64,000 nt of DNA from NCBI GenBank assembly GCA_016839705.1, contig JAEOTR010000006.1, positions 1 through 64,000 on the forward strand, read 5' to 3'. How positions within the stretch are numbered: position 1 is the stretch's first letter; each line of letters opens with the position of its first letter. Of this stretch, positions 43,359 through 57,171 are shown in pieces. The stretch comes from Promethearchaeota archaeon (lineage in GTDB: Archaea > Asgardarchaeota > Lokiarchaeia > Sigyniarchaeales > SOKP01). The notes under the pieces are model-generated. The model saw only the letters and a program-made list of their open reading frames with translations. It was not told where the DNA came from and ran no database searches. Both the position numbers and the translations under genes were made by a program.

Positions 43359-44846
43359 GTGAAAAAAAAAATGAAAAAAACTAAAATAATTACAATTTCA
43401 ATCTTAGGATTGCTATTATTAGTTCCATTTATGACACCTACAGTAGCTGCACCTGCCTCCTATGTTCCTGTGGCAGAAGAAGAAACTTATCTATGGGAGT
43501 TAAGTCAATATAACACTAATTTTGCTCAATTCTTCGCAGACAATATGAGCGATGTGATAGCTACAATCTTTAGCCAACCGATAATTTGGCAAATAATTAC
43601 AGTTTATACTGGTTGGAGCTGGGACAGTATTACACCCCAATCATCTTGGCCTCTTACTGTTAAAGCCATTTTACCTGAAAATACTAGTACATTTCTTCTT
43701 CCTGACTATTTTATCCCAGATAATATAACTCATACACCAGTCTATTTGGGTAGTGGATATAATGTTCTCCATTACCCAGCAGCTAGTACCTTCTACGACG
43801 ATACCTGGTATATAGTAAATGATACAGCTAGTTTTGCGAAACAAAGTTTATTTGGGGGGACGGCAACTTCTCCCTATATGATAATGGGCGTTCCATTTGG
43901 ACCTAAGAATATAAACTGGACCGAATTTGTTGCGGTGGCTAATGGGGGAATGGGTGGTGGCTACTGGACAGGGGATGCTGTAAATACTACAGTAACTGCT
44001 TTATCTGATGGATATTCATTGTCTGTACCTATCTCTGGTTATGGAAGTAATACCCTACCTATAACTATAAATGTTTCCTATAATGCAAATAGCATTCTTG
44101 ATAACTACACATTTCAATATGGAGCCCTTACGCTTTTCTACTATGAACTAGTTTCATATGAAGCTGATGGTGTAAATCCAGTAACAACTTCTCCAAGTGA
44201 TTTTGCCGTTGCTCATGACTACACTGGGGAAAGTATTTCATGGACCGCAACAGATGCAAATCCTGGTAATTACACAATAAAGCGCGATGCTATCACCGTT
44301 GTAACACCAACTCCATGGGCAAGTGGTACGCCAGTTACTTACAATATTACGGATGGGTTAGCAGAAGGTGCTTCTTATACATTTGAAATCACTTTTTCAG
44401 ATGCATATGGGAATTCTGTATCTGATTCAGTAGTGATGACTGTAACCGTTCCTGATACAACGGACCCTGTTATAACAAGCGCTCCGAGCGATTTAGTTGT
44501 TGCACACGGTTATACAGGACAAAGTCTTTCGTGGACGGCAACAGATGCGAATCCTGGTACTTATGTTATAAAATGTAATGGAACACTTGTCGTTGTACCA
44601 GCAACTGCGTGGATAAGTGGTACACCAGTTACTTACAATATTCCGGATGGATATGAACCAAGTGTTACTACATATGAAATTACTTTTTCAGATGTTATTG
44701 GGAATAATGTATCTGATTCAGCTACACTAACTGTAAATCCCGCAACAACACCCCCTGGCATTCCAGGATATGAGCCTTTAATAGTCATAGGTATCACCGG
44801 TATTGCGTCTATTTGTTTAATAATCTTTAAAAAGAAAAAGAGATAA
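43359..44846 (+). CDS. Surface glycoprotein with two Ig-like repeats and IPGY-TM-basic sorting signal
   Basis: Signal peptide, two 96-aa repeats (SWTATDANPG, SGTPVTYNI, EITFSD..GN.VSDS), C-terminal IPGYEPLIVIG...KKKKR. Confidence 0.85.
   Translation: MKKKMKKTKIITISILGLLLLVPFMTPTVAAPASYVPVAEEETYLWELSQYNTNFAQFFADNMSDVIATIFSQPIIWQIITVYTGWSWDSITPQSSWPLTVKAILPENTSTFLLPDYFIPDNITHTPVYLGSGYNVLHYPAASTFYDDTWYIVNDTASFAKQSLFGGTATSPYMIMGVPFGPKNINWTEFVAVANGGMGGGYWTGDAVNTTVTALSDGYSLSVPISGYGSNTLPITINVSYNANSILDNYTFQYGALTLFYYELVSYEADGVNPVTTSPSDFAVAHDYTGESISWTATDANPGNYTIKRDAITVVTPTPWASGTPVTYNITDGLAEGASYTFEITFSDAYGNSVSDSVVMTVTVPDTTDPVITSAPSDLVVAHGYTGQSLSWTATDANPGTYVIKCNGTLVVVPATAWISGTPVTYNIPDGYEPSVTTYEITFSDVIGNNVSDSATLTVNPATTPPGIPGYEPLIVIGITGIASICLIIFKKKKR
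44175..44750 (+). repeat. Intragenic tandem duplication, 288-bp period
   Basis: Near-identical DNA blocks, e.g. gcaacagatgc[a/g]aatcctggta and ccagttacttacaatatt, in both copies. Confidence 0.8.
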
Positions 44847-45025
44847 GTAGTAAACTTAAAATCTAAATTTATTATTTTTTTTGATTTTTTTTATCTTAAC
44901 TTGAAAATTGGTTTAGTTTAAATTTTTAATATTTTAGTATTTTATTATTGAATTCTTATTTCTTTTCATCTATTTAAGAGATTTTTTTTAGCTGATTTCA
45001 ATTGAACATATATAATATAGTAAAA

Positions 45026-46357
45026 TTATAAAAAACGATCTAGGGTTCTTTGAGTTTTAATATAGTTAATTAACTTGCTACCCTTTTTCCAATGTTTAAA
45101 CTCTACAATAAACCCTTCAGTCATTTTGCTGATTGCATCCTTGAAATTGTCTAATTTGGTAGGTTCGCTTGTCCACATCGCATTATTTACAGTCTCTCTT
45201 ATAACCCAAACGCCTAATGGAACAACATACCCTCCAGAAACTTCTCTAAATATGAGAATTCTTGCTTGCTTTTTTATTTTATACAGATACTCACACACTG
45301 ACTTTCTTGCAGCATAATAGGCTCCAGTTATATTACTTGCATAATTTTTTCTCCCTCCGTAAAATTCAAAGTCAGTCATTATCTGTGGTTTTAAACTACG
45401 AGTATTTCCATCAAGAGAAACATTCCATAAAGTATTAGGTGCCCACACTTCATTCATTTCATACATAAACTTCCCAGGGAATAAAAGTATCTTGAAATGG
45501 TTGTCAAGATAAGTAGCTTCAAAAATCTGATAATCATCAATTTCAGGAAACTTCTTAATTTCTTTAATCAAGCCTTTTGATATGATATCATCAACAGCGG
45601 TTATTGTCCAACGAGTAGGTACAATTCTACGCCTTTTTTCTTCACCAAGCAATCCTGCTGAGAAGATTCTTTTTATCGTAGATTCAGGCACATTCCCTTT
45701 GAAATAAAGGTGTTCTGAGACAGCTTCAGTTGCTTTTAGATCTATATCTGATACGCAGTAGTCGACTTGGGGATGCACCTTAGTATTTTCTGTTATGGTT
45801 ATTTTCTCTGTCATGCCAGAAGGTCCCATTGGTAAAGAATGATTATCCATCATCAGGTGTAAATTCATTTTTGATAATTTTGTTTCCGTATCTACGGGTT
45901 GTGCTGCCATTGATAACTCTTGAGATGTTTCTAGAAGTTTTTGAATTTTTAATGAAGGTGTAGTTTTTGGATTCTTGCGACCAATGAACACATTTGTTTT
46001 AAAGTTGCTTCTAACTAGACTGCTTCTATAGCGTATTATATCAACCATCTTTTTCCCAAACCATAGTTCTGGAGCATCAAGGATGTGATAATCTGAGATA
46101 TCAAGCCCCGTTTCAAATTCCTGGTAAGGTACTAATGGTCCTAAATATACATTTGGATAACTAAAGTGTCCTACAAAGAATCCCGGAGGACTTGCCCCAA
46201 AAATCTCGACATTTCTCTGAGTTTTGTCAATCTCGAAAGGAACCATCGATTTTAATACTGATTTCTTTAATAAAATAGGGCACGTTTTTTTCCCGCATAA
46301 CAATCTCCCTCCTTTACAACGAAGGCAAATGTTCTTTTCTGTTTGAGGTCTGACCAA
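45026..46357 (-). CDS. nreA: Archaeal Nre DNA-repair protein with C-terminal PIP box
   Basis: CLRCKGGRLLCG...CP, GASPP, VPTRWTITAVD, GAYYAAR, PLGVWVIRE, QRTLDRFL. Confidence 0.92.
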   Translation of the reverse strand: MVRPQTEKNICLRCKGGRLLCGKKTCPILLKKSVLKSMVPFEIDKTQRNVEIFGASPPGFFVGHFSYPNVYLGPLVPYQEFETGLDISDYHILDAPELWFGKKMVDIIRYRSSLVRSNFKTNVFIGRKNPKTTPSLKIQKLLETSQELSMAAQPVDTETKLSKMNLHLMMDNHSLPMGPSGMTEKITITENTKVHPQVDYCVSDIDLKATEAVSEHLYFKGNVPESTIKRIFSAGLLGEEKRRRIVPTRWTITAVDDIISKGLIKEIKKFPEIDDYQIFEATYLDNHFKILLFPGKFMYEMNEVWAPNTLWNVSLDGNTRSLKPQIMTDFEFYGGRKNYASNITGAYYAARKSVCEYLYKIKKQARILIFREVSGGYVVPLGVWVIRETVNNAMWTSEPTKLDNFKDAISKMTEGFIVEFKHWKKGSKLINYIKTQRTLDRFL

Positions 46358-46538
46358 CTGATTTTCTCTTGAATCTTTTTATACTACTCAAAAATAATTA
46401 ATATCTCTTATTATAAAAAGAAAAGAAGAGTATAAATTTTTAATATTTATAATAAAGAACCAATAAAGCAAGAGAAAAATGTGCTATATTTTAAATTCTA
46501 AAATTAATAACGAAATTATTGAGTAGAGAAAATATTGT

Positions 46539-47114
46539 TTAAGGTATACTGTCATAATCTAAACTATGATAATCCATTATTTTTTTTGCTATTTGTTTAA
46601 AACTATAGAGGATATTGCTATTCTCTTTTGAAGAGGTTTTTATATAATCTTTTTCATTGTGATTTTGAAGGAATTGTTGAATAATATATGAAGCAACTTT
46701 ATAATTTTTGTCAACACCCCGCGCTAAGTCATACTTAGTTCCAACAAGCACCTTGGGACGATCTTGAAGGTTATATTGCACTAAATTATCATACCACCAA
46801 TCTAATTTAAAAAGAGTTTCTATTTTGAGTAGGTCAAAAACCAAAAAGATTCCACTTGCACCTGAAATATAATATCCAAATAATGATTTAAATTGCTCTT
46901 GACCTCCAAAATCCCATATTGAAAGACGAGCAAAAGAATCATCACCTTTAACTACAATAGGAATATCATATGTATAAAAATCTATACCAACAGTAAGTTT
47001 GGTGTCAGCATTAAATGTGTTGAAGCACAACCTCCTAGCCATGCAAGTTTTTCCTACACCACCACTACCAACTAAGCAGATTTTAAATACATATTTTAAT
47101 TGTTTGTCTTCCAT
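46539..47114 (-). CDS. Rab-like small GTPase
   Basis: FKICLVGSGGVGKT, TVGIDF, IWDFGGQEQF, GTKYD, TSSK. Confidence 0.92.
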   Translation of the reverse strand: MEDKQLKYVFKICLVGSGGVGKTCMARRLCFNTFNADTKLTVGIDFYTYDIPIVVKGDDSFARLSIWDFGGQEQFKSLFGYYISGASGIFLVFDLLKIETLFKLDWWYDNLVQYNLQDRPKVLVGTKYDLARGVDKNYKVASYIIQQFLQNHNEKDYIKTSSKENSNILYSFKQIAKKIMDYHSLDYDSIP

Positions 47115-47291
47115 AATTGTCCCCTACGCTAACCGTTTTAATATAAATTTTCAAATGAAAATAGAATTTTTAATATAATTCAATAGAAAAAACGCTTTTA
47201 TTTATATCTTTGATATTTAAAATTGACTGTATTATTCTGTTTTTGAATGAAAATATTTGGTGTTTATTAAATTTTGTAATAATAGGAAGCA

Positions 47292-47882
47292 TTATAATTT
47301 TCTACATAATAATTCTCCTTTCCCTATAGGAACTATAAGTGCATCTACTCGATCATCACTTAAAGCTTTTTCCAACATAGGCTTTAAAGTTTCGTAATGA
47401 TTAATTGCATTATCGGCTATAAGAATTCCTCCTTTAACCAAGTTAGGAATTACCATGTCATAACACTCACCATAGACCTCTTTTTCAGCGTCTAAAAAAC
47501 AGAAAGAAATATCAGTATAATTTTTTAAATAATTCCTAGCGTCACCTGAGATTAATTCAATGTAATCCTCCATATCAGTTTCCTTAAATGTCTCTTTTGC
47601 TAATTTCACTTTATCTTCCAATAATTCAAAAGTAGTAATTGTAGTTCCTTTTAATTTGCACGCAAAAGCTATCCATAACGTCGAGTAACCTGCACTCGTT
47701 CCAATTTCAATAAACTTCCCCTCAGGCGCGGATGCTGCTAAGATTGAAATGAATTTTCCTGTTTCAGGTGGAATTTGGCGTAACCTCTTTAAACGTGGAG
47801 TTCCATCATTCCTATCCTTTGAATCAAGATCCTCAAGAAATTTCATTCTTTTTGTGATACTTTCTGGTACATTATGAAACAT
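47292..47882 (-). CDS. Class I O-methyltransferase (caffeoyl-CoA/COMT-like)
   Basis: [25 protein letters not shown]. Confidence 0.9.
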
Positions 47883-47911
47883 TAATAATCCTCTTTTAAT
47901 TATTATACATC

Positions 47912-48802
47912 CTATCTTAAATCAGGTATTACATTCTCAGCTATTTTTGTTAGATTTTGGACGTTTTTGGATTCAAAGAAGGGAAAATAAATAATAAATT
48001 CATCAATTCCAATTTCAATATATTTATTTATTTCACATCTAAAATTCTCTTCTGAATCTAGAATTGTACGACCATGGCGGGTATAAAACATTAAAGAACG
48101 ACGTAGTGTATCTGGATTTCTATTAAGTTCTTTGCAATATTTATCTATCAACTCAACCCGTTTTTTAGTGTTTTCAAAAATCTTTTCTGCAGGAGCTCGC
48201 CAGTCTTCTGATCCAAACGAATTCCATGTATCCGCATACTTAGCTGCAACTTTCAGCATGGTGTTTCCCATCGCAGCAATGACCATTGGTGGTCGAGGTT
48301 TTTGAATTGTTGGCGGATTCATTGCAGCATTATCTAATTTATAATATTTTCCCTCATAACTGGAAACACTCTGACGCAGGAGCCTATCTATTATTTCTAC
48401 TTGATCTTTAAATCGATCAACTCGTTCTGAACCTTGCCAATCTTCAATCTTGAGCATGTTATGAACAGGATCTCTTCTACCACCTGTACCTAAGCCTATT
48501 TCTAATCTTCCATTAGATATATGGTCAACAGTAAGGGCTTGTCGTGCTAACACAGCCGGTCTGCGTAATGGCATTGAAGTCACCAATGTTCCAAGTCTTA
48601 CTCGTTCAGTAACAACAGCGAGAGAAGCTAAAAGTGTCCAAGATTCAAACCAGTTCCCGGTATGATTTACGGGATCTGTAAAGTGATCTCCTAACCATAT
48701 ACTATCAAACCCCAAACTCTCAATTAATCTCCATCGTTTGACTTCCTTTTCCCAAGGAAGGATCTGACTCGTAAATACTCCAAATCGAATTTTATTCCCC
48801 AT
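47912..48802 (-). CDS. LLM-class (likely F420-dependent) oxidoreductase
   Basis: [43 protein letters not shown]. Confidence 0.9.
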
Positions 48803-48973
48803 TTTAAATTCCTTTAATGTTTTAATTTGATTTATATAACATCATTTCAATGAAAAGTTTTTACTTTTAGTGACCCCTCCCTTCCTTTTTAAAAGACGTA
48901 AAACAATAATTACTACTTCGATTTAAATAATAAGATAAAATTTTAGTAAAAAATGCAAGATAGGTGTTAATTA

Positions 48974-49228
48974 GTGGGGTATATCAAAGAAACTGCTGAT
49001 GTAGTAAAGGACTCGTTAAAAGGGTTTACTAGCAAGAAAAAATTTAAAAAGTTAATAGATAATATGATCTTCGCGATAGAAACTAATACCGTGAGTAAAT
49101 ACTTTTTTTATAAATATAGGATTTTAGAAGAATTAGCATCATTTATTACTTTAAAAAAAGATAGAGATAAAGATTATTTAAGAAAATATGAAAGAGTGAA
49201 ACATTACTATAAAGAACACTTTTATTAA
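48974..49228 (+). CDS. Hypothetical protein
   Basis: 84-aa ORF, SD-like AGGTG upstream, fills the intergenic gap. Confidence 0.55.
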   Translation: MGYIKETADVVKDSLKGFTSKKKFKKLIDNMIFAIETNTVSKYFFYKYRILEELASFITLKKDRDKDYLRKYERVKHYYKEHFY

Positions 49229-49259
49229 CTTGCCAATTAGACGTAAAACTTATTATCTC

Positions 49260-50162
49260 TTAACTATGAGTTAATATCTCCATTAAAGCTCTAGGAATTT
49301 CTTTATAATCGGTTACAGCATAAAATTTTCCTCTCCCTGCATCTGCTATCTCTCGACATGTTTTAATCCCTTGAGCAGCATCATTTTCAGCCGGCATACC
49401 AATGACATGCAACTTTGGAAAGAGCTTTGCGATTTCAATTGGATTCTTTCCTCTATTAAATACACCATCCGAGATTAAAATGCCGAACCGACTTTTCCTC
49501 TCTTCTCTTGTTTTATTCAATTCGCTTAATCCTTTTTCAAGACCTAATTGAATATTAGTAAAACCAACTGCTTCTGAATCTAAGATATCATCTATGATTT
49601 TAAGAGTTGTTTTTTTTTGGTTGATTTTTTTTAATGTCATCGCTGTTGAATTGAATAAAACGATAGCATAATCTTCTTTTTCCATATTATATGCTAAAAC
49701 CGAGGTCGTAAGGGCTGCATTCAATAAAAGACGACCATACATACTCCCACTTGTATCCAATATTAGCACTATTTTTCTTTTCTGTCGTTTCCTTACAATC
49801 CCAAAGATATCTTTATAGCTTAAATTTTTATCATGAATCTTTAGGGGATTATGTTGGATTGTCTCATCCAAACTAAATTCAGGCATTCCAATTTGATAAT
49901 AGGGTACTGATCTTTTAAATTGGCCTCTTATCCCTTTACTAGTTATCTTTAGTGATAACTTTAATATGCTCTGACGAGCGAGACGTCTAAAAATTGCCTT
50001 ATACTTTGGAGATATTGGACGCCTGATAAAAAAATAAACTTCTGGCATAAAATCTCCTTGATTTTTAACCTTTTCAGAGAGAAATCTTACTCCGTCTTCA
50101 GTATCCAAAATGTCAGTTGCTGCGTAAACATTTGCTTTTAGAAGTCCCATTACTGCATCCAA
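49260..50162 (-). CDS. vWA-domain protein, MoxR partner (reading frame stays open upstream to 50384)
   Basis: LDTSGSM MIDAS, GFTNI, ISDG, LDETI. 74 further stop-free codons upstream of the TTG with no ATG/GTG/TTG. Confidence 0.85.
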   Translation of the reverse strand: MDAVMGLLKANVYAATDILDTEDGVRFLSEKVKNQGDFMPEVYFFIRRPISPKYKAIFRRLARQSILKLSLKITSKGIRGQFKRSVPYYQIGMPEFSLDETIQHNPLKIHDKNLSYKDIFGIVRKRQKRKIVLILDTSGSMYGRLLLNAALTTSVLAYNMEKEDYAIVLFNSTAMTLKKINQKKTTLKIIDDILDSEAVGFTNIQLGLEKGLSELNKTREERKSRFGILISDGVFNRGKNPIEIAKLFPKLHVIGMPAENDAAQGIKTCREIADAGRGKFYAVTDYKEIPRALMEILTHS

Positions 50163-50340
50163 GTTGTCGGAGGCTATCGCTAACTGAGTTAACCTTTTAA
50201 TTGTTTTATAATCAAGAGTATCGGCAAGGTGTTTGTAATATTCAGGTTTTTTCCTTTTTTTTCTCGCTATCTCATATTCTAATACATCTTCATTTTGCCT
50301 ACTTTCCGTAAGTCTAACATGCAGTTTTTTCTCAATCTCC

Positions 50341-50381
50341 TCGGATCCCTCCGCAGAGAAATCATCGATTATTGAAAATCT
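50341..50381 (-). other. Candidate -1 programmed ribosomal frameshift signal
   Basis: A_GAU_UUU, 6-nt spacer CAAUAA, then hairpin UCG(AU)GAUUUCUC-UGCG-GAGGGAUC-CGA. The vWA frame is -1 relative to MoxR and overlaps its last codons. Confidence 0.55.
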
Positions 50382-51241
50382 GATTTATTCAACACAGCTA
50401 AAACAATACTAGTAATAACTTCTTTTTTTGATTGAGTTAATCCATCTTCCAATTCGATTTTATTATGTAGTGACATCACTGCAGCTTCGATCCAATTGCT
50501 TGAGCTATCAGAATTATTATATTGGTTTATTAATGTGGCTAAATCAATAGCACCTCTAATTGAACTCCCTCTTCGGATTGAAATTGTCTCTCTAGTGGCT
50601 TGTATAATATTCTGAGATATTTTCGTTATTTTTTCCGAATTTACATTCGCTTCCTGTTTGATTATTTGAATTTCTTCTTCTGGACTTTGATAATCTAAAT
50701 TAATCCAGATGAAGCGATCAATTAAAGCCTCACCTAAAACAGTAACTCCAACATGAGCAGCAGGATTTTGAGTGGCAACTACAAAAAAATCTTTATGAGC
50801 TTTAATTGTATCTAATTTAGGGATTTCGAGTATACCCTCGTCTAGAGCAGTTAACAAGGAATTTTGTGTATTTTCTGGCATTCTATTAATTTCATTTATA
50901 AATAAGCATCCACCATTAAGCATTGCTAAAGCTAAAGGGCCATATTTGTAAGAATCTTCGTTATATCCTTTCGCAATTACGAGAGGAGGTTCATAATAAC
51001 CAACAAGATTATGCGGGAGTAACTCTTCACTACAATCGACTCTATAAAAACTAGAATCATCAGAACCATAAAATTTGGTTATAGCCCTAGCCAGCGTAGT
51101 TTTTCCGACACCTACATTCCCTTCTAATAAGATATTCTTACCTACTGAATGAGCTAACACAATTTGTTTTAGTTCTTCTGTTCGACCTATGATTTTAAAT
51201 TTCTTTTGTATTTCTGACACTAAGCTGGTCGTATCAACCAT
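50369..51241 (-). CDS. MoxR-family AAA+ ATPase
   Basis: LLEGNVGVGKT Walker A, FINEINR Walker B, VATQNP, ALIDRF, SIRGAI. Confidence 0.92.
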   Translation of the reverse strand: MVDTTSLVSEIQKKFKIIGRTEELKQIVLAHSVGKNILLEGNVGVGKTTLARAITKFYGSDDSSFYRVDCSEELLPHNLVGYYEPPLVIAKGYNEDSYKYGPLALAMLNGGCLFINEINRMPENTQNSLLTALDEGILEIPKLDTIKAHKDFFVVATQNPAAHVGVTVLGEALIDRFIWINLDYQSPEEEIQIIKQEANVNSEKITKISQNIIQATRETISIRRGSSIRGAIDLATLINQYNNSDSSSNWIEAAVMSLHNKIELEDGLTQSKKEVITSIVLAVLNKSDFQ

Positions 51242-51359
51242 ATTTTTTAGAATTAATCCTTTCTAAAATAATTTTAGTTTATGAGATAATAGACTAAGAC
51301 ATAAATTCAGAATTAACTTATACTTACATAGGGTAAAAATTAAGAAAGATAAAAAAAAT

Positions 51360-52286
51360 TTAATCTAAAGAAAGTTTAGTTTGATTTTCTCCTTCTAGCT
51401 CCATTAGTAAAATAGAACTTGTACGTTTCCATAATTTCAATGAAATAACACCAATTGAAATTAGTATACTTGGATAAATTATTATTTCTAGCAAAGTAGG
51501 ATTTGCGTTATAACCAAATAATGCTTTTAACAGCGATCCAATAATTTCAAGCCATTCTGGGGTTAATGGATTACCATCAGGAAATTTTTCAGGTAAAATA
51601 TGTTTAATATTCCATACTTCTTGGATGATTGGATTTACTACTCCCGCCTCTATTAATTCATGGATTCCGTATGTGATTAAGCCAGCTACAAACAATATAA
51701 AAATAATATTTGTTACTTTGAAAAACTTGGCTAAATTAATATTTTTCACCCCATAATAAATTAATAATCCTAAACCAACCGAAAAACTAAGACCTGTTAA
51801 AGAACTTAATATGACATCTACCTGATTCAGAGAGCCAACAGAGGTTGCTCCTGTGAGCAGAAGGACTAATTCTATTCCTTCACGAATAATAATTATGTAG
51901 GTAAGTATTGCTATTGATATAACTCTTCCAGACTCAATTGAAAACTCAACTTTTTCTTCAAGATGTTTCTTCATTTTAGGTCCCTCCTTGCTCATCCATA
52001 ACACTAAAGTCACCACAAAAATTCCAGATATAATGAAAGCAATGCCTTCAAAGATTTGCTCTGCTGGACCAGAAAATCCTCCAAATACAGTTGTAAATAC
52101 AATCGCAAAGAAAATACTTGAAATGATAGCTAACGTACTTCCAATAAAGACATACTTATAATAAAATCGTTGATCAGTATTTTTTAAATATAAGAGTATT
52201 ATAACTATTACTAATACTGCTTCTATTCCTTCTCGAAACGCCAGAAAAATTGGAACCATTAGATCTACAATTGACATAAAAATCAT
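51360..52286 (-). CDS. FTR1-family iron permease
   Basis: Two REGIE motifs, GIHELIEAG, LKALFGY. Confidence 0.92.
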   Translation of the reverse strand: MIFMSIVDLMVPIFLAFREGIEAVLVIVIILLYLKNTDQRFYYKYVFIGSTLAIISSIFFAIVFTTVFGGFSGPAEQIFEGIAFIISGIFVVTLVLWMSKEGPKMKKHLEEKVEFSIESGRVISIAILTYIIIIREGIELVLLLTGATSVGSLNQVDVILSSLTGLSFSVGLGLLIYYGVKNINLAKFFKVTNIIFILFVAGLITYGIHELIEAGVVNPIIQEVWNIKHILPEKFPDGNPLTPEWLEIIGSLLKALFGYNANPTLLEIIIYPSILISIGVISLKLWKRTSSILLMELEGENQTKLSLD

Positions 52287-52346
52287 CTTTTAACTATATT
52301 TTTTATAATTTTTCATGTTGAACCTATTATTTTTCTTATTTAAACG

Positions 52347-52360
52347 TTAGGGTTATCTAA
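52347..52360. promoter_or_regulatory. DtxR/SirR-like metal-regulator box upstream of FTR1
   Basis: TTAGGGTTATCTAA, resembling TTAGG-N4-CCTAA, 2 nt upstream of a minus-strand TATA TTTAAATA (52337-52344). Confidence 0.5.
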
Positions 52361-52590
52361 TATTAACAAGATTTTCTCCTAAAATGTGATGGATCTAAAT
52401 TAATTCTCAGAATATTAAGATTATAAGATCAAATTTAAATAATTTTCTATAAGATTTACCTGAAAAAGCCTAGTAAATAAACATAAAGAGAGGAATGATT
52501 AAAAATTCCTCTTTCTAGCTCCTTTTTTGAATTTATTTTGCTGTTCGACCAGATTAAAGGTTTTTAAACCTTGAAACAGAAATATTAATT

Positions 52591-54087
52591 ATGGAAAAAT
52601 CAAATATTATTGAAACTAAAACCGGAAAAATCCAAGGATATAAAGAAGAAGGATTAGAAATCTTCAAGGGAATTCCATTTGCAGAACCCCCTATTGGGAA
52701 ATTACGCTTTTCTCCACCCGTTAAAAAGCAATCATGGGATGGAGTACTTAAAGCCACAGAATATGGTCCTTGTTCATTTCAAGGACATTCTGAACTTGAA
52801 CAGTATCTCGGTAAGCTTGAACCAGAAAGTGAGGATTGCTTGACTCTCAACATCTGGACTCCCGCAACAGACAGCGGAAAACGTCCAGTAATGTTTTGGA
52901 TTCATGGAGGGGCTTTTATGATAGGAGGTGGGACTGATCCAATGTATGATGGCTCAGCTTTGGCTCTAAGAGGTGATATAATAGTCGTTACCATTAATTA
53001 TAGACTTGGATCTTTTGGGTTCTTATATAGTAAGAGCATACCACCGAATCTAGGTTCTCAAGATCAATTGATGGCTCTAAAATGGGTACATGAGAATATT
53101 ATGTCATTTGGTGGTGATCCTTCGAATATTACTATTTTTGGTGAATCTGCAGGGGGATATTCCGTCCTAACTTTGTGTACAATGCCTAAAGCAAAGGATC
53201 TTTTTCACAGAGTTATTGCCCAGAGTGCCCCTTTTATTGATACTAAAGTTAGTGATGAGACTTCCAATAAGATTTTGAGTAAACTTCACATTATTGAAGG
53301 TGATATTGATTCATTACGAGAAGTTCCACCAGAAAAAATCATTGAAGCACAAAATCAAGTTACTGCCTCTCTACCTACAGATGTCATGGCTTTAAGGCCT
53401 TTAATCATTGGAGATACGTTCCCAAAACATCCATTAAAAGCCTTTCTAAACGGAGAGTGTGCAGATATCGATTTCATGATTGGTACCAACCTTGATGAAT
53501 TTAAATTATATACAGCTATGGAACCTTTTAAATCGATGGTCGAAGGTAATTCTGAGAATTTATTAGTTGGATTTTTAGGATCGTTGGGGATCAAAACAAA
53601 AGAAGGGACGGAAATAATAAAAACATATATAGAAGCAAGAGAAGGAAAATATTCCACAAAACCACTAGATGTCTTCACAGCTATTATCACAGACTTTGCA
53701 TTCCGTATCCGTACGATACGTTTACTTGAAGCTCAGAAGAAATTTCAACCTAACACCTACAACTATATGTTTACTTGGCCTTCGCCAGGATTGAATGGTA
53801 TTTTAGGAGCATGTCATTCACTCGAGATACCTTTTGTTTTTGGGACATTGGATTCCCCGACCCTAAAAGAATTCGTTAAAGGTGCACCGAAAGAATTATC
53901 CGATAAGATGATGGATGCTTGGATTAGTTTTGCGAAAACAGGAAATCCAAATCATGGAAATATCCCTATTTGGCCTGCTTATGATACTAAGATGCGTGCA
54001 ACCATGATTTTTGGAGAAGAATGTAAAGTAGAGGAAGCCCTTTTTGACAAAGAAAGAACAGCTTGGGAGGGTTTGCTAGAAATTTAA
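52591..54087 (+). CDS. Type-B carboxylesterase/lipase (pNB-esterase-like)
   Basis: FKGIPFAEPP, SEDCLTLNIW, WIHGG, FGESAG, GACHSLEIPFVFG. Confidence 0.95.
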   Translation: MEKSNIIETKTGKIQGYKEEGLEIFKGIPFAEPPIGKLRFSPPVKKQSWDGVLKATEYGPCSFQGHSELEQYLGKLEPESEDCLTLNIWTPATDSGKRPVMFWIHGGAFMIGGGTDPMYDGSALALRGDIIVVTINYRLGSFGFLYSKSIPPNLGSQDQLMALKWVHENIMSFGGDPSNITIFGESAGGYSVLTLCTMPKAKDLFHRVIAQSAPFIDTKVSDETSNKILSKLHIIEGDIDSLREVPPEKIIEAQNQVTASLPTDVMALRPLIIGDTFPKHPLKAFLNGECADIDFMIGTNLDEFKLYTAMEPFKSMVEGNSENLLVGFLGSLGIKTKEGTEIIKTYIEAREGKYSTKPLDVFTAIITDFAFRIRTIRLLEAQKKFQPNTYNYMFTWPSPGLNGILGACHSLEIPFVFGTLDSPTLKEFVKGAPKELSDKMMDAWISFAKTGNPNHGNIPIWPAYDTKMRATMIFGEECKVEEALFDKERTAWEGLLEI

Positions 54088-54095
54088 ATTTCTTT

Positions 54096-55352
54096 TTACC
54101 TAGGGAAAAGTTTCACGATTACCTTTTCCCCTTTTTTTAATCCTTCTTGATGTGGGGGGATTTCAACAATACCATCAGACTTTGTTAGCGAACTAATAAC
54201 CCCCGATCCTTTAAGTTTTACAGGGATAGCAACTAATTTATCTTCAGATTTTTTAATATCTACCCTTAAATGATGAAGATAACCAAGACCGGAAACAGGA
54301 ACATCTCTACTGATCTCTACTATTATTTCAGATCTTGGATCAAGGAGAGAACAACCCATTATACCTCTTATTGCTACACCTGCCATTTTTAAAAAGGAAA
54401 CATAGGCTGCAACCGGAGTTCCTGGTAAACAAAATACCAAACTCTCATTTAATAAACCAGTTAACACGGGTGCTCCCGGTCTTTGGGCAATTCCGTGAGT
54501 TAAAATTACACCTGATTCTTTAATAACTTCAGGAAGATAATCTTTAGTCCCTACAGAAGTACCTCCTGTGAAAATTATAATCTGAGAGTCTTCTGCGGCT
54601 TCAATTAGTTTCTTTTTAATATAGTTTAAATCATCTTTAACAGTTTCACCTCGAATAACTTCGCCACCGTATAGATGCACTAACGCGGAAATCATTGGAG
54701 TGTTTGAATTGTAAATTTTCCCAGGAATTAAAATATCACCGGGCTCAAGTAATTCATCTCCAGATGAAAAAACACTAACTTTGGGTTTAGTAACCACTTT
54801 AATACTCTTAAATCCTAATGAAGTTAAAAGTGCAATATGTTCAGCTTTTAATTCTGTACCCTTATTTAAAACTTGAGTCCCTTTATTGATATCCTCTCCT
54901 TTCTTGGAAACATTTTTTCCCGGAGGAAGAGAAATATATAGACTTATTAGGTTATTTTCAATTTCTGTATCTTCAATTTTAACAACAGAATCAGCACCTA
55001 CTGGAATAGGAGCCCCAGTGGAAATTCTGATGCCCTCACCCTTTTTAAGTTTTAGAAAGGAAGACTCACCAATTTCTATTGTCCCAACAAGTTTAATTTC
55101 TTTTGGGTTTTTAGTAGAAGCCCCGAATGAATCTTCCGCTTGAATCGCATAACCATCCATTGCGGATCGATCAAAAGGAGGAATATCCATTCCGCTCATA
55201 ATATCAACAGCTAGTACACGGTTTAGTGAGGAATTTATTTCAACTTCTTCGATTGGATTTATTTTGATGTGAGAAAAAAGTATTTCGAGGGCTTCTGAGA
55301 CCGATGTTAATTTTGAAAATCCTATTTTTCTGAGTTTTTCCATTTCCATCAC
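54096..55352 (-). CDS. moeA: Molybdopterin molybdo/tungstotransferase MoeA
   Basis: PPFDRSAMDGYA, STGAPIP, SSGDEL, TGGTSVG..D, LPG.P. Confidence 0.95.
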   Translation of the reverse strand: MMEMEKLRKIGFSKLTSVSEALEILFSHIKINPIEEVEINSSLNRVLAVDIMSGMDIPPFDRSAMDGYAIQAEDSFGASTKNPKEIKLVGTIEIGESSFLKLKKGEGIRISTGAPIPVGADSVVKIEDTEIENNLISLYISLPPGKNVSKKGEDINKGTQVLNKGTELKAEHIALLTSLGFKSIKVVTKPKVSVFSSGDELLEPGDILIPGKIYNSNTPMISALVHLYGGEVIRGETVKDDLNYIKKKLIEAAEDSQIIIFTGGTSVGTKDYLPEVIKESGVILTHGIAQRPGAPVLTGLLNESLVFCLPGTPVAAYVSFLKMAGVAIRGIMGCSLLDPRSEIIVEISRDVPVSGLGYLHHLRVDIKKSEDKLVAIPVKLKGSGVISSLTKSDGIVEIPPHQEGLKKGEKVIVKLFPR

Positions 55353-55909
55353 TCCTCTTTATTAATAATATAAAGTATATGTCCAATTTCGGGTATAATT
55401 AATGCTTCTAATGCTAATTTTACAGCTCTCGGTGATCCTGGAAGCAAAAAGATAGCCTTATTTTTCTTCTTGCTTTCTAATATTCCGGCGACAGCTCTTG
55501 ATAACATAGCAGAAGATCCAATTTCATTATATGAAATATTCCGAAAGAGCTCTCCAAATCCATTAATTTTTTTTTTAAGTCGAGGTTCTATAGTTTCATA
55601 TGTAATATCTTTTGGAGATAAACCCGTACCTCCACTGAAAATTATAGCATCAATGGCATCTTCTTTCATTATTCTAACCAAAATATCATTTAACTGCTCC
55701 TCTGAATCTGGTATTATCTCTGCAAAGTCTAATGAAATCGATGATTCCTTATCGAATATCTTTTTCACAATAGGTATTGTTTTATCTGAAGTTACCCGGT
55801 TAAGCTTGAGCTCTTCATATCGACTTGTACTCACCACCACTAAAGCAAAAATAACCTTCTCTGGAGCTTTTTTTTTATGTTCCTCGTGCACTTTTAGTTT
55901 TTTCTTCAT
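55349..55909 (-). CDS. moaB: Molybdopterin adenylyltransferase MoaB/MogA
   Basis: SGGTGLSPKDIT, GFGELFR, AMLSRA, LPGSP. Confidence 0.92.
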   Translation of the reverse strand: MKKKLKVHEEHKKKAPEKVIFALVVVSTSRYEELKLNRVTSDKTIPIVKKIFDKESSISLDFAEIIPDSEEQLNDILVRIMKEDAIDAIIFSGGTGLSPKDITYETIEPRLKKKINGFGELFRNISYNEIGSSAMLSRAVAGILESKKKNKAIFLLPGSPRAVKLALEALIIPEIGHILYIINKEE

Positions 55910-55944
55910 ACAACTCAGCCGACCACTTAATTTTAATTTAAATA

Positions 55945-57171
55945 TTAGAAGAAATACACCCTCCTTGTATCTCCTCTTTCTAAAACGGATTCTAGCTCTT
56001 CTATTTCAATATAGCCATCAGCAAGGAAAATTGTACTCATAGCTTCCGATCCAGTTTTTATCGGAAAAATTTTCTTATTCCCATTTTCTTCTTTAATCTT
56101 GACCGCTTTGAATTCATGTCGTCCAACAGTGCTATATATTCTTTCTCCTAGTTCAAATTTTTTCGAAAATCTGTCTTTCAATGGATAACCTGAAAGCCTT
56201 CTCAGAAAATTATCAATAAAGACATAAAAACAGCTTAAAGCGGAAGTTGGATAACCTGGTAAAATAAATATTATTTTTTTCTTTAATTTTGTGAAGATAA
56301 TTGGCTTTCCTGGTTTTATTTTTACACCGTGAACCATTATTTCTATGTCATCATATTTTCCTAAGACTTGGGGGCCTAAATCTCCTTCACCTTTAGATGT
56401 TCCCCCGGATAAAATTACTATATCACTTATTTCTAAGGCTTTATCTAAAGCACTTTTTAATTCTTCATAATCATCATTAATGATCCCTAAATAGTTGACT
56501 AAAACTCCTGTATTTTCAATAGCCCTTTTTAATACCACAGAATTTACATCGTATATCTTGCCAATTTCTAAATTTTTAACATCTTGACTTACAATTTCAT
56601 TACCTGTGCTTAGAAGGGAAACTTTGGGTTGTTTAAATACCCACACTTCTTTACTTCCTGCTGAAGCTAGTATTCCCATTGTTGCTAAATCAACTAAAGA
56701 CTCTTTTTTGACTATTATGCTTTTCTCCTTTATATCATGACCGATTTCTATAATGTAAGTTCCGGGAGTCACCGCCTTAGAAATCAAAATGCTGTTTCCC
56801 TCTTTTTCTGTAAATTCAACCATCACAACACTGTTAGCATTTTCGGGTATAGCAGCCCCAGTTGCGACATATGAACACTGACCTTTAATCAAGCTTTTTT
56901 GAGGTATATCCCCTGCTTGAATTACTTCTATTAGTTCCAACTCAATAAAATTATCTTCTTCTGCCCCGAAAGTATTTTCTGCGATGCAAGCATACCCATC
57001 CATGCGAGATTTTCGAAAGTGAGGGACATTAATTTCACTAATTACATCTCTTGAAATTATTCGATTAAAGCTTTCTTCAATATCGACTTTTTCTTCTTCA
57101 TTTCTTAAAATCGGGACCGATTCGAGGATTTCTTTAAATTCTTTTACTTTAATAGTTTTTAGAAATTTCAT
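55945..57171 (-). CDS. moeA: Second MoeA paralog
   Basis: VPHFRKSRMDGYA, ATGAAIP, STGNEI, SGGTSKG.GD, KPGKP, LPGYPTS. Confidence 0.95.
   Translation of the reverse strand: MKFLKTIKVKEFKEILESVPILRNEEEKVDIEESFNRIISRDVISEINVPHFRKSRMDGYACIAENTFGAEEDNFIELELIEVIQAGDIPQKSLIKGQCSYVATGAAIPENANSVVMVEFTEKEGNSILISKAVTPGTYIIEIGHDIKEKSIIVKKESLVDLATMGILASAGSKEVWVFKQPKVSLLSTGNEIVSQDVKNLEIGKIYDVNSVVLKRAIENTGVLVNYLGIINDDYEELKSALDKALEISDIVILSGGTSKGEGDLGPQVLGKYDDIEIMVHGVKIKPGKPIIFTKLKKKIIFILPGYPTSALSCFYVFIDNFLRRLSGYPLKDRFSKKFELGERIYSTVGRHEFKAVKIKEENGNKKIFPIKTGSEAMSTIFLADGYIEIEELESVLERGDTRRVYFF

Follow-up and report, generated by a model that had tools for sequence, protein, structure and literature searches.

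Frameshifted chlD genes ('magnesium/cobalt chelatase') carry an AAA+ and then a vWA domain in one gene and shift −1 at the junction, where a slippery site is followed by a 3′ structure, yielding a short ATPase and a long fusion; they are predicted in archaea too, in Methanococcus and Methanocaldococcus (PMC3711429, PMC9227772, PMC5009743). In NorQ/NorD, CbbQ/CbbO, CoxD/CoxE and RavA/ViaA, a MoxR-type ATPase and a neighbouring MIDAS-bearing vWA partner are encoded by separate genes, with six NorQ to one NorD (PMC9976466). According to reviews, there are almost no validated cellular archaeal frameshifts, the cases being fucA1 of Sulfolobus, with a heptamer and stem-loop, and the predicted chlD (PMC8211752). 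In the umbravirus PEMV, G_GAU_UUU three bases before the stop is a proven site, and 36–40% of its activity is left when P-site re-pairing is blocked (PMC4737148). Here we describe a moxR/vWA locus of Asgard archaea, on which no paper was found in the literature searched. It is very likely (probability about 0.87) one recoded gene, in which a programmed −1 ribosomal frameshift joins moxR and the vWA ORF; the evidence is comparative, without data from RNA, ribosome profiling or peptides.

The locus lies in a window of 64,000 nucleotides (the whole stretch of DNA that was analysed) from a metagenome-assembled genome placed in Promethearchaeia (Loki). Its main features are the following.

50369..51241, (−) strand: moxR-type AAA+ ATPase ORF, 0 frame, 290 aa, the short product (Pfam AAA_5/AAA_3)
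51098..51121, (−) strand: Walker A motif, from the sequence (found in 136/139 orthologues)
50891..50905, (−) strand: Walker B motif, atypical hhhhNE replacing DE (NE in 136/139 Asgard orthologues)
50375..50381, (−) strand: putative slippery heptamer A_GAU_UUU (family consensus G_GAU_UUU; U_UU site in 139/140 loci)
50369..50371, (−) strand: 0-frame stop TAA, one codon past the heptamer (layout as in PEMV)
50330..50368, (−) strand: conserved 3′ stimulator hairpin and kink-turn candidate (pattern in 74/74 family loci)
50163..50374, (−) strand: start-less −1-frame segment, predicted acidic disordered linker and three helices of a helical domain (pN/pS 0.13 over codons 17–72; pLDDT)
49260..50384, (−) strand: −1-frame ORF with linker, helical domain and vWA domain, the C-terminal half of the predicted 660-aa fusion (Pfam VWA; in-frame fusion homologues)
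49743..49757, (−) strand: MIDAS DxSxS motif, together with T272 and D302 (conservation in 89 orthologues)

The 3′ end of moxR reads TCA GAT TTT CAA TAA (50383-50369). The vWA frame is −1 relative to moxR and has no stop over 50384-49263 (374 codons), and its earliest ATG, GTG or TTG is the TTG at 50162, after 74 codons; a slip on UUU would give a product of 289+371 = 660 aa. A preliminary description had reported the coordinates, the moxR end, the −1 frame, the 74 start-less codons and a product of ~660 aa, and all of these held on the sequence. When overlapping or abutting long-ORF pairs of this genome were compared, the first start lay at least 120 nt past the upstream stop in 6/238, and among these six only the moxR/vWA pair showed a U_UU run in the last codons. 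Because such pairs are rare and only one has the run, a chance origin of the start-less overlap is disfavoured. Contig C30 of the same genome, near 14848 (+), also holds a −1 overlap (290 aa then 334 aa), with its first start 170 nt past the stop and no U-run in the last codons.

We examined both halves against two marks of MoxR AAA+/vWA pairs, a MoxR-type AAA+ module with Walker A/B and arginine finger, and an adjoining vWA partner with intact MIDAS. The first was met, with matches to GvpN, NorQ and CbbQ and with the NE Walker B: the closest single-domain PDB relatives of the ATPase were MoxR 2r44, NorQ and CbbQ, and its best NCBIfam match was GvpN. The NE form is also found in the seven closest in-frame fusions and in the paralogue on contig C49 of this genome; it is possible that it lowers or conditions ATPase activity. 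The second mark was met as well, D206, S208, S210 and D302 being invariant and T272 at least 90% conserved in 89 orthologues, so that the MIDAS is intact. A special link to midasin was dropped, as midasin leads the PDB search only via summed repeats and reaches at most 37 bits per domain vs 64 for MoxR 2r44.

The vWA half was detected in 57/61 relatives and 184/301 phylum genomes, and conservation was counted over the 144 unique loci in which both halves are present, with the caveat that relatedness makes these loci non-independent. The vWA frame was open across the moxR stop in −1 in 140/144 loci, representing 20/21 Asgard families. Two closed genomes are included: that of the cultured Ca. 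Lokiarchaeum ossiferum (L036; 6,035,313 bp), which carries the frameshift signal, and L043 (4,324,194 bp), which we take to be strain MK-D1. The remaining four loci, family f32, have the vWA ORF in the +1 frame with an ATG 10–13 nt past the stop and lack the kink-turn (strict pattern 0/4). A quick tree that included a distant outgroup placed f32 inside the frameshift families (SH-aLRT 99), and hence the split form looks derived. Since the frameshift is kept across 20 Asgard families, it likely predates their split. A sequencing indel, which the preliminary description had left as an alternative, or a pseudogene gains some support from the window being part of a metagenome-assembled genome, yet is all but excluded: the same junction is present in 140 loci, closed genomes included, and purifying selection acts on both halves. 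Agreement among more than 100 independent assemblies rules out assembly error. The comparison of orthologues proposed in that description found the −1 overlap and the U-run conserved phylum-wide, with no normal shared start codon.

A further alternative is that these are two genes with translational coupling, in which ribosomes re-initiate at a non-canonical codon (ATA, ATC, GTA, TTG) over or just past the stop and the hairpin controls access. In its favour, an ATA spans the stop in the window, resembling a −4 overlap, TTG or GTG lies over the stop in 10/140 loci, many families have an SD-like GAGG past the stop, and the hairpin of two loci outside the Asgard set (L176 and L185) holds an in-frame ATG, like the l7ae leader (PMC6298567). 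Against it, the codon over the stop was ATA, TTA, CTA, GTA, TTG, GTG or CTG and never ATG in the 140 loci, and the ATGA overlap was found in 0/140 loci vs 24/34 of this genome's start-over-stop −1 pairs. Furthermore, the ATG that the Asgard kink-turn contains is not in the vWA frame, neither a heptamer nor P-site covariation would be selected under re-initiation, and this genome's paralogous pair starts from an ordinary SD and TTG. The first possible vWA start varied from −1 to +605 nt, and no start codon was common to the −1 loci. We therefore consider re-initiation unlikely. In several families (f10, f19, f29 and f30) an ATG ~60 nt past the stop could conceivably also act as a start. Database N-termini of the vWA protein scatter, giving 282 to 367 aa, which we attribute to the gene being recoded and without its own start.

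The preferred reading, that a programmed −1 frameshift makes both MoxR and a MoxR–vWA fusion, had been put forward in the preliminary description; it is supported by conservation, with nothing shown at the RNA or protein level. We found a U_UU site within the last seven moxR codons in 139/140 loci, the chance frequency of the heptamer site being 0.85% per codon, and the stop followed 0–1 codons past the slip site in nearly all loci. P-site re-pairing was possible too in 124/140 loci: 47 had the canonical heptamers A_AAU_UUY, U_UUU_UUN, G_GGU_UUU or C_CCU_UUU, and in 77 the first two bases were equal (G_GAU_UUU type, 73 being G_GAU_UUU itself). Fifteen loci, the window's A_GAU_UUU among them, were without it. 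Across families, the base before the P codon followed the P codon's first base (G in 83/116, A in 14/14 and C in 7/8), and the rare Ser codon TCG made up 36/48 of the Ser codons at the site vs 57/601 elsewhere. This covariation and codon preference fit tandem tRNA slippage and are not predicted by re-initiation or polymerase slippage. The slip site is thus likely to be a tandem P/A-site heptamer just before the stop and not U_UUU alone, an inference made from sequence alone; the original proposal of slippage on U_UUU held in part, as the U-run is conserved but tandem slippage on the heptamer is indicated. We infer that the window's A_GAU_UUU is likely a weak variant, which should slip less than G_GAU_UUU and probably still works. 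Of three expected signs of a programmed −1 frameshift, a conserved −1 overlap whose downstream ORF lacks its own start codon, a heptamer or proven variant inside the overlap, and a conserved 3′ structure about 5–9 nt downstream, the first two are present. Two loci differ in detail: L046 (family f5) has the variant site A_AAC_CCU directly before the stop, and in L149 (family f19) the stop lies five codons past U_UUU_UUC.

Transcriptional slippage, in which one extra U on the T-run would yield an in-frame mRNA, was also considered. The T-run is conserved at the site and reaches 6–7 T in some families, but it is just T4 in the window and most loci, and codon-phased covariation together with a 3′ hairpin are ribosomal signatures. 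Transcriptional slippage usually needs a run of 8–9 nt. An RNA-library assembly at L043 yielded one 27-kb contig with neither indel nor joint, but as contigs lose rare variants and this one may derive from DNA, it counts neither for nor against. We regard this explanation as very unlikely. Bulge-helix-bulge splicing was rejected by inference, as its geometry excises sequence downstream of the stop and cannot remove the stop.

The third sign, the 3′ structure, is present as well. The window's stimulator begins 6 nt past UUU, and in most loci the first GA lies 8–11 nt downstream. Over codons 1–16 of the −1 frame synonymous divergence (pS) was 0.24, and none of 72 other windows fell below 0.47; the first three of those codons also overlap moxR. 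The hairpin first noted, at 50368-50341, has 11 bp and folds (−10 kcal/mol), but its stability is ordinary for a sequence of that composition (z −1.3), and it failed as a conserved stimulator, all 11 pairs being present in only 6/52 same-length family rows. By contrast, 52/52 of these rows retain six core pairs of a different and longer pairing (50368-50330).

In the standard kink-turn a 3-nt bulge and then tandem G.A pairs lie between two helices (PMC5061560). Loci outside the window's family were anchored on the GA, inner stem, 3-nt bulge and GA, leaving the outer stem unused, and 42/66 anchored on a kink-turn layout (3-nt bulge, tandem G.A / A.G pairs). The outer stem was paired in 70% of cells vs 43±3% with arms permuted between loci (0/2000), in 65% vs 46±5% (1/2000) with one row per family, and in 25–41% in slid registers; by sequence comparison, the C and NC helices in other families are backed by covariation. 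The strict kink-turn pattern was found in 26/66 loci vs 0.85% of other windows, and families f10, f27 and f14 had no match to the kink-turn pattern. A caveat is that acidic codons give GA for free. RNA-level constraint is nevertheless favoured, because a Korarchaeota homologue and one metagenomic homologue keep the heptamer and motif in another codon phase. In many families, then, the stimulator likely fits a standard kink-turn with covarying stems 8–11 nt past the slip site, the kinked fold itself being inferred. A loose kink-turn scan was rejected (15% background, with 60/74 kept after synonymous shuffles in the window's family) and replaced by anchored covariation and strict patterns. Outside the Asgard set, L176:2460-2510 (Korarchaeota GCA_027491415) and L185:2460-2510 have G_GGU_UUU and a kink-turn in the −1 frame; with the kink-turn ATG in the vWA frame, frameshifting and an occluded start are both possible there.

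In the window's family the candidate kink-turn has these parts.

50368-67 with 50331-30, (−) strand: 2-bp C helix
50366-64, (−) strand: bulge
50363-62 with 50333-32, (−) strand: G.A pairs
50361-55 with 50340-34, (−) strand: NC helix

This reversed-orientation motif was present in 74/74 loci vs 0.04% of other windows, a pattern derived from the same 74 loci in which it was counted. Pairs 7–8 are invariant, pairs 5–6 are paired in 64/64, and the C helix has only two pairs, both invariant. A register slid by 2 nt pairs at least as well overall, and nine variant rows favour the kink-turn register. A U.U lies beside the G.A pairs, a feature shared with box C/D kink-turns, whose folding requires L7Ae (PMC5689011). 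The window's hairpin is thus supported as a stimulator, with its kink-turn register ambiguous and a kink-turn there no more than possible. Rfam gave no match at the locus, a promoter/terminator scan stayed at chance level, and no natural kink-turn frameshift stimulator was found in the literature searched. This genome has two L7Ae-family genes. A bolder reading, a phylum-wide −1 frameshift with a kink-turn stimulator bound by L7Ae or a paralogue, is less likely than not in our judgement, without binding data; under it the motif is kept in Korarchaeota in another codon phase and appears rebuilt in reverse in the window's family.

The start-less segment was then considered as protein. Within the genus, codons 17–72 of the −1 frame had a pN/pS of 0.13, equal to the vWA body, and the other two frames reached a stop within 70 codons in 137/140 and 140/140 loci. 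In an AlphaFold2 model built from 89 orthologues (mean pLDDT 84.7), residues 1–23 of the −1 frame form a disordered linker (pLDDT <50) and helices at 27–37, 43–50 and 55–67 (pLDDT 85–94) all lie upstream of the TTG at residue 71. The segment is under purifying selection and is predicted by the model to fold within the vWA-side helical domain. These data bear on another view, in which translation of the vWA protein begins with its first canonical codon, TTG 50162 or ATG 50150, and the open frame ahead of it is merely incidental. Many members of the genus do have an ATG near +221, but several lack it, purifying selection is as strong on the upstream codons as on the body, and a product begun there would be without three confident helices; we find this view very unlikely. 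A full profile search revealed in-frame fusions of the same family (584–711 aa), the closest being 43–49% identical to the ATPase half, and because these exist the predicted 660-aa product has a natural architecture. A first word-index search for longer homologues had returned nothing, a sensitivity artefact given that the profile search found the fusions.

Several related loci show other arrangements. An in-frame 711-aa fusion (L183:4001-6136) and a start-less +1/−2 junction in Njordarchaeia (L178:2340-2520) share the gene order CDC48, MoxR-vWA, RpoL and ESCRT-II EAP30; the latter junction may represent a second type of shift within the family. In L184 the two ORFs meet in an ordinary ATGA overlap. 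In the window's own genome, contig C49:72526-76024 holds a genus-conserved paralogous MoxR with an 833-codon vWA ORF, arranged as an ordinary SD-led TTG-start operon. The neighbours of the moxR/vWA locus itself are as follows.

46539-47114: Ras-family GTPase
Also within 43359-57171: O-methyltransferase, luciferase-like oxidoreductase, Nre DNA-repair protein, FTR1 iron permease, carboxylesterase and MoeA

MoeA-like genes recur near the locus in 34/61 and Ras-like genes in 30/61 of the family; the neighbour analysis gave no informative conserved neighbours and indicated no client.

Collectively, sequence comparison establishes the −1 overlap, the heptamer before the moxR stop, the conserved hairpin and a coding start-less segment. 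In the mechanism we propose, the hairpin and the nearby stop would make ribosomes pause while Asp/Asn/Gly and Phe tRNAs occupy the heptamer. Most would terminate and release the 290-aa ATPase, and a fraction would slip −1 in tandem to make the 660-aa ATPase-linker-helical-vWA protein with the junction ...SDF/SIIDD.... The short product would occupy most places in a hexameric ring, to which the fusion would add a tethered MIDAS adaptor, the slip rate setting the ring-to-adaptor ratio by analogy with MoxR/vWA biology. Such a role in stoichiometry, suggested at the outset for an Asgard MoxR system, remains inference. With still less certainty, and no binding data, L7Ae may stabilise the hairpin where it is a kink-turn.

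Compared with frameshifted chlD, the locus has the same AAA+-linker-vWA architecture split by a −1 signal, with the slippery site, 3′ structure and pair of products described above. It differs in its MoxR/GvpN/NorQ-like AAA+ subfamily, in a U-rich heptamer with an adjacent stop where chlD has poly-A, in its kink-turn-like stimulator, and in having no chelatase large subunit nearby. TIGR02442 scored 19.6 and 18.4 bits against the two halves and 691 and 592 against this genome's chlD-like genes. These two genes are in frame, at C73:91397-96217, directly upstream of cobN, and at C85:94707-96761, in what is presumably an anaerobic Loki archaeon. Linkage to cobN/chlH was not met, since cobN lies on contig C73 beside the other, in-frame chlD-like gene; it is not required in all fs-chlD genomes. 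The locus thus works like frameshifted chlD, the analogy drawn in the preliminary description, but did not meet the test for a ChlI/ChlD orthologue. If the reading is right, frameshift-set AAA+/vWA stoichiometry would not be confined to chelatases.

The likeness to NorQ/NorD and the other MoxR-type pairs lies in the ATPase and its MIDAS-bearing vWA partner; those are separate genes, whereas here the adaptor is inferred to be tethered to a ring subunit via recoding, and the Walker B is NE. As in the l7ae leader, the candidate element has the 3-nt bulge and tandem G.A pairs of a standard kink-turn in an archaeal mRNA (PMC5061560, PMC6298567), but the Asgard one is inside the coding region, at frameshift-stimulator distance. 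A kink-turn/L7Ae stimulator, if true, would add a new class of frameshift control, a natural protein-stimulated archaeal frameshift tying the ATPase-to-adaptor ratio to free L7Ae. Like fucA1, this is a cellular archaeal −1 frameshift candidate with heptamer and stem-loop; fucA1 is strain-restricted and low-level (PMC8211752), whereas the Asgard site is kept across the phylum. With PEMV it shares the non-canonical heptamer G_GAU_UUU, the stop one codon later, a structure right after the stop and A_AAU_UUU as a natural alternative (PMC4737148), but it belongs to a cellular archaeal gene and has a 30–45 nt hairpin where the virus has a ~90-nt element that makes a long-range contact. A cellular Asgard gene would thus use the heptamer, stop and hairpin in the style of a eukaryotic virus and, as the signal sits in Ca. 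L. ossiferum, the recoding is directly testable in the closest prokaryotic relatives of eukaryotes.
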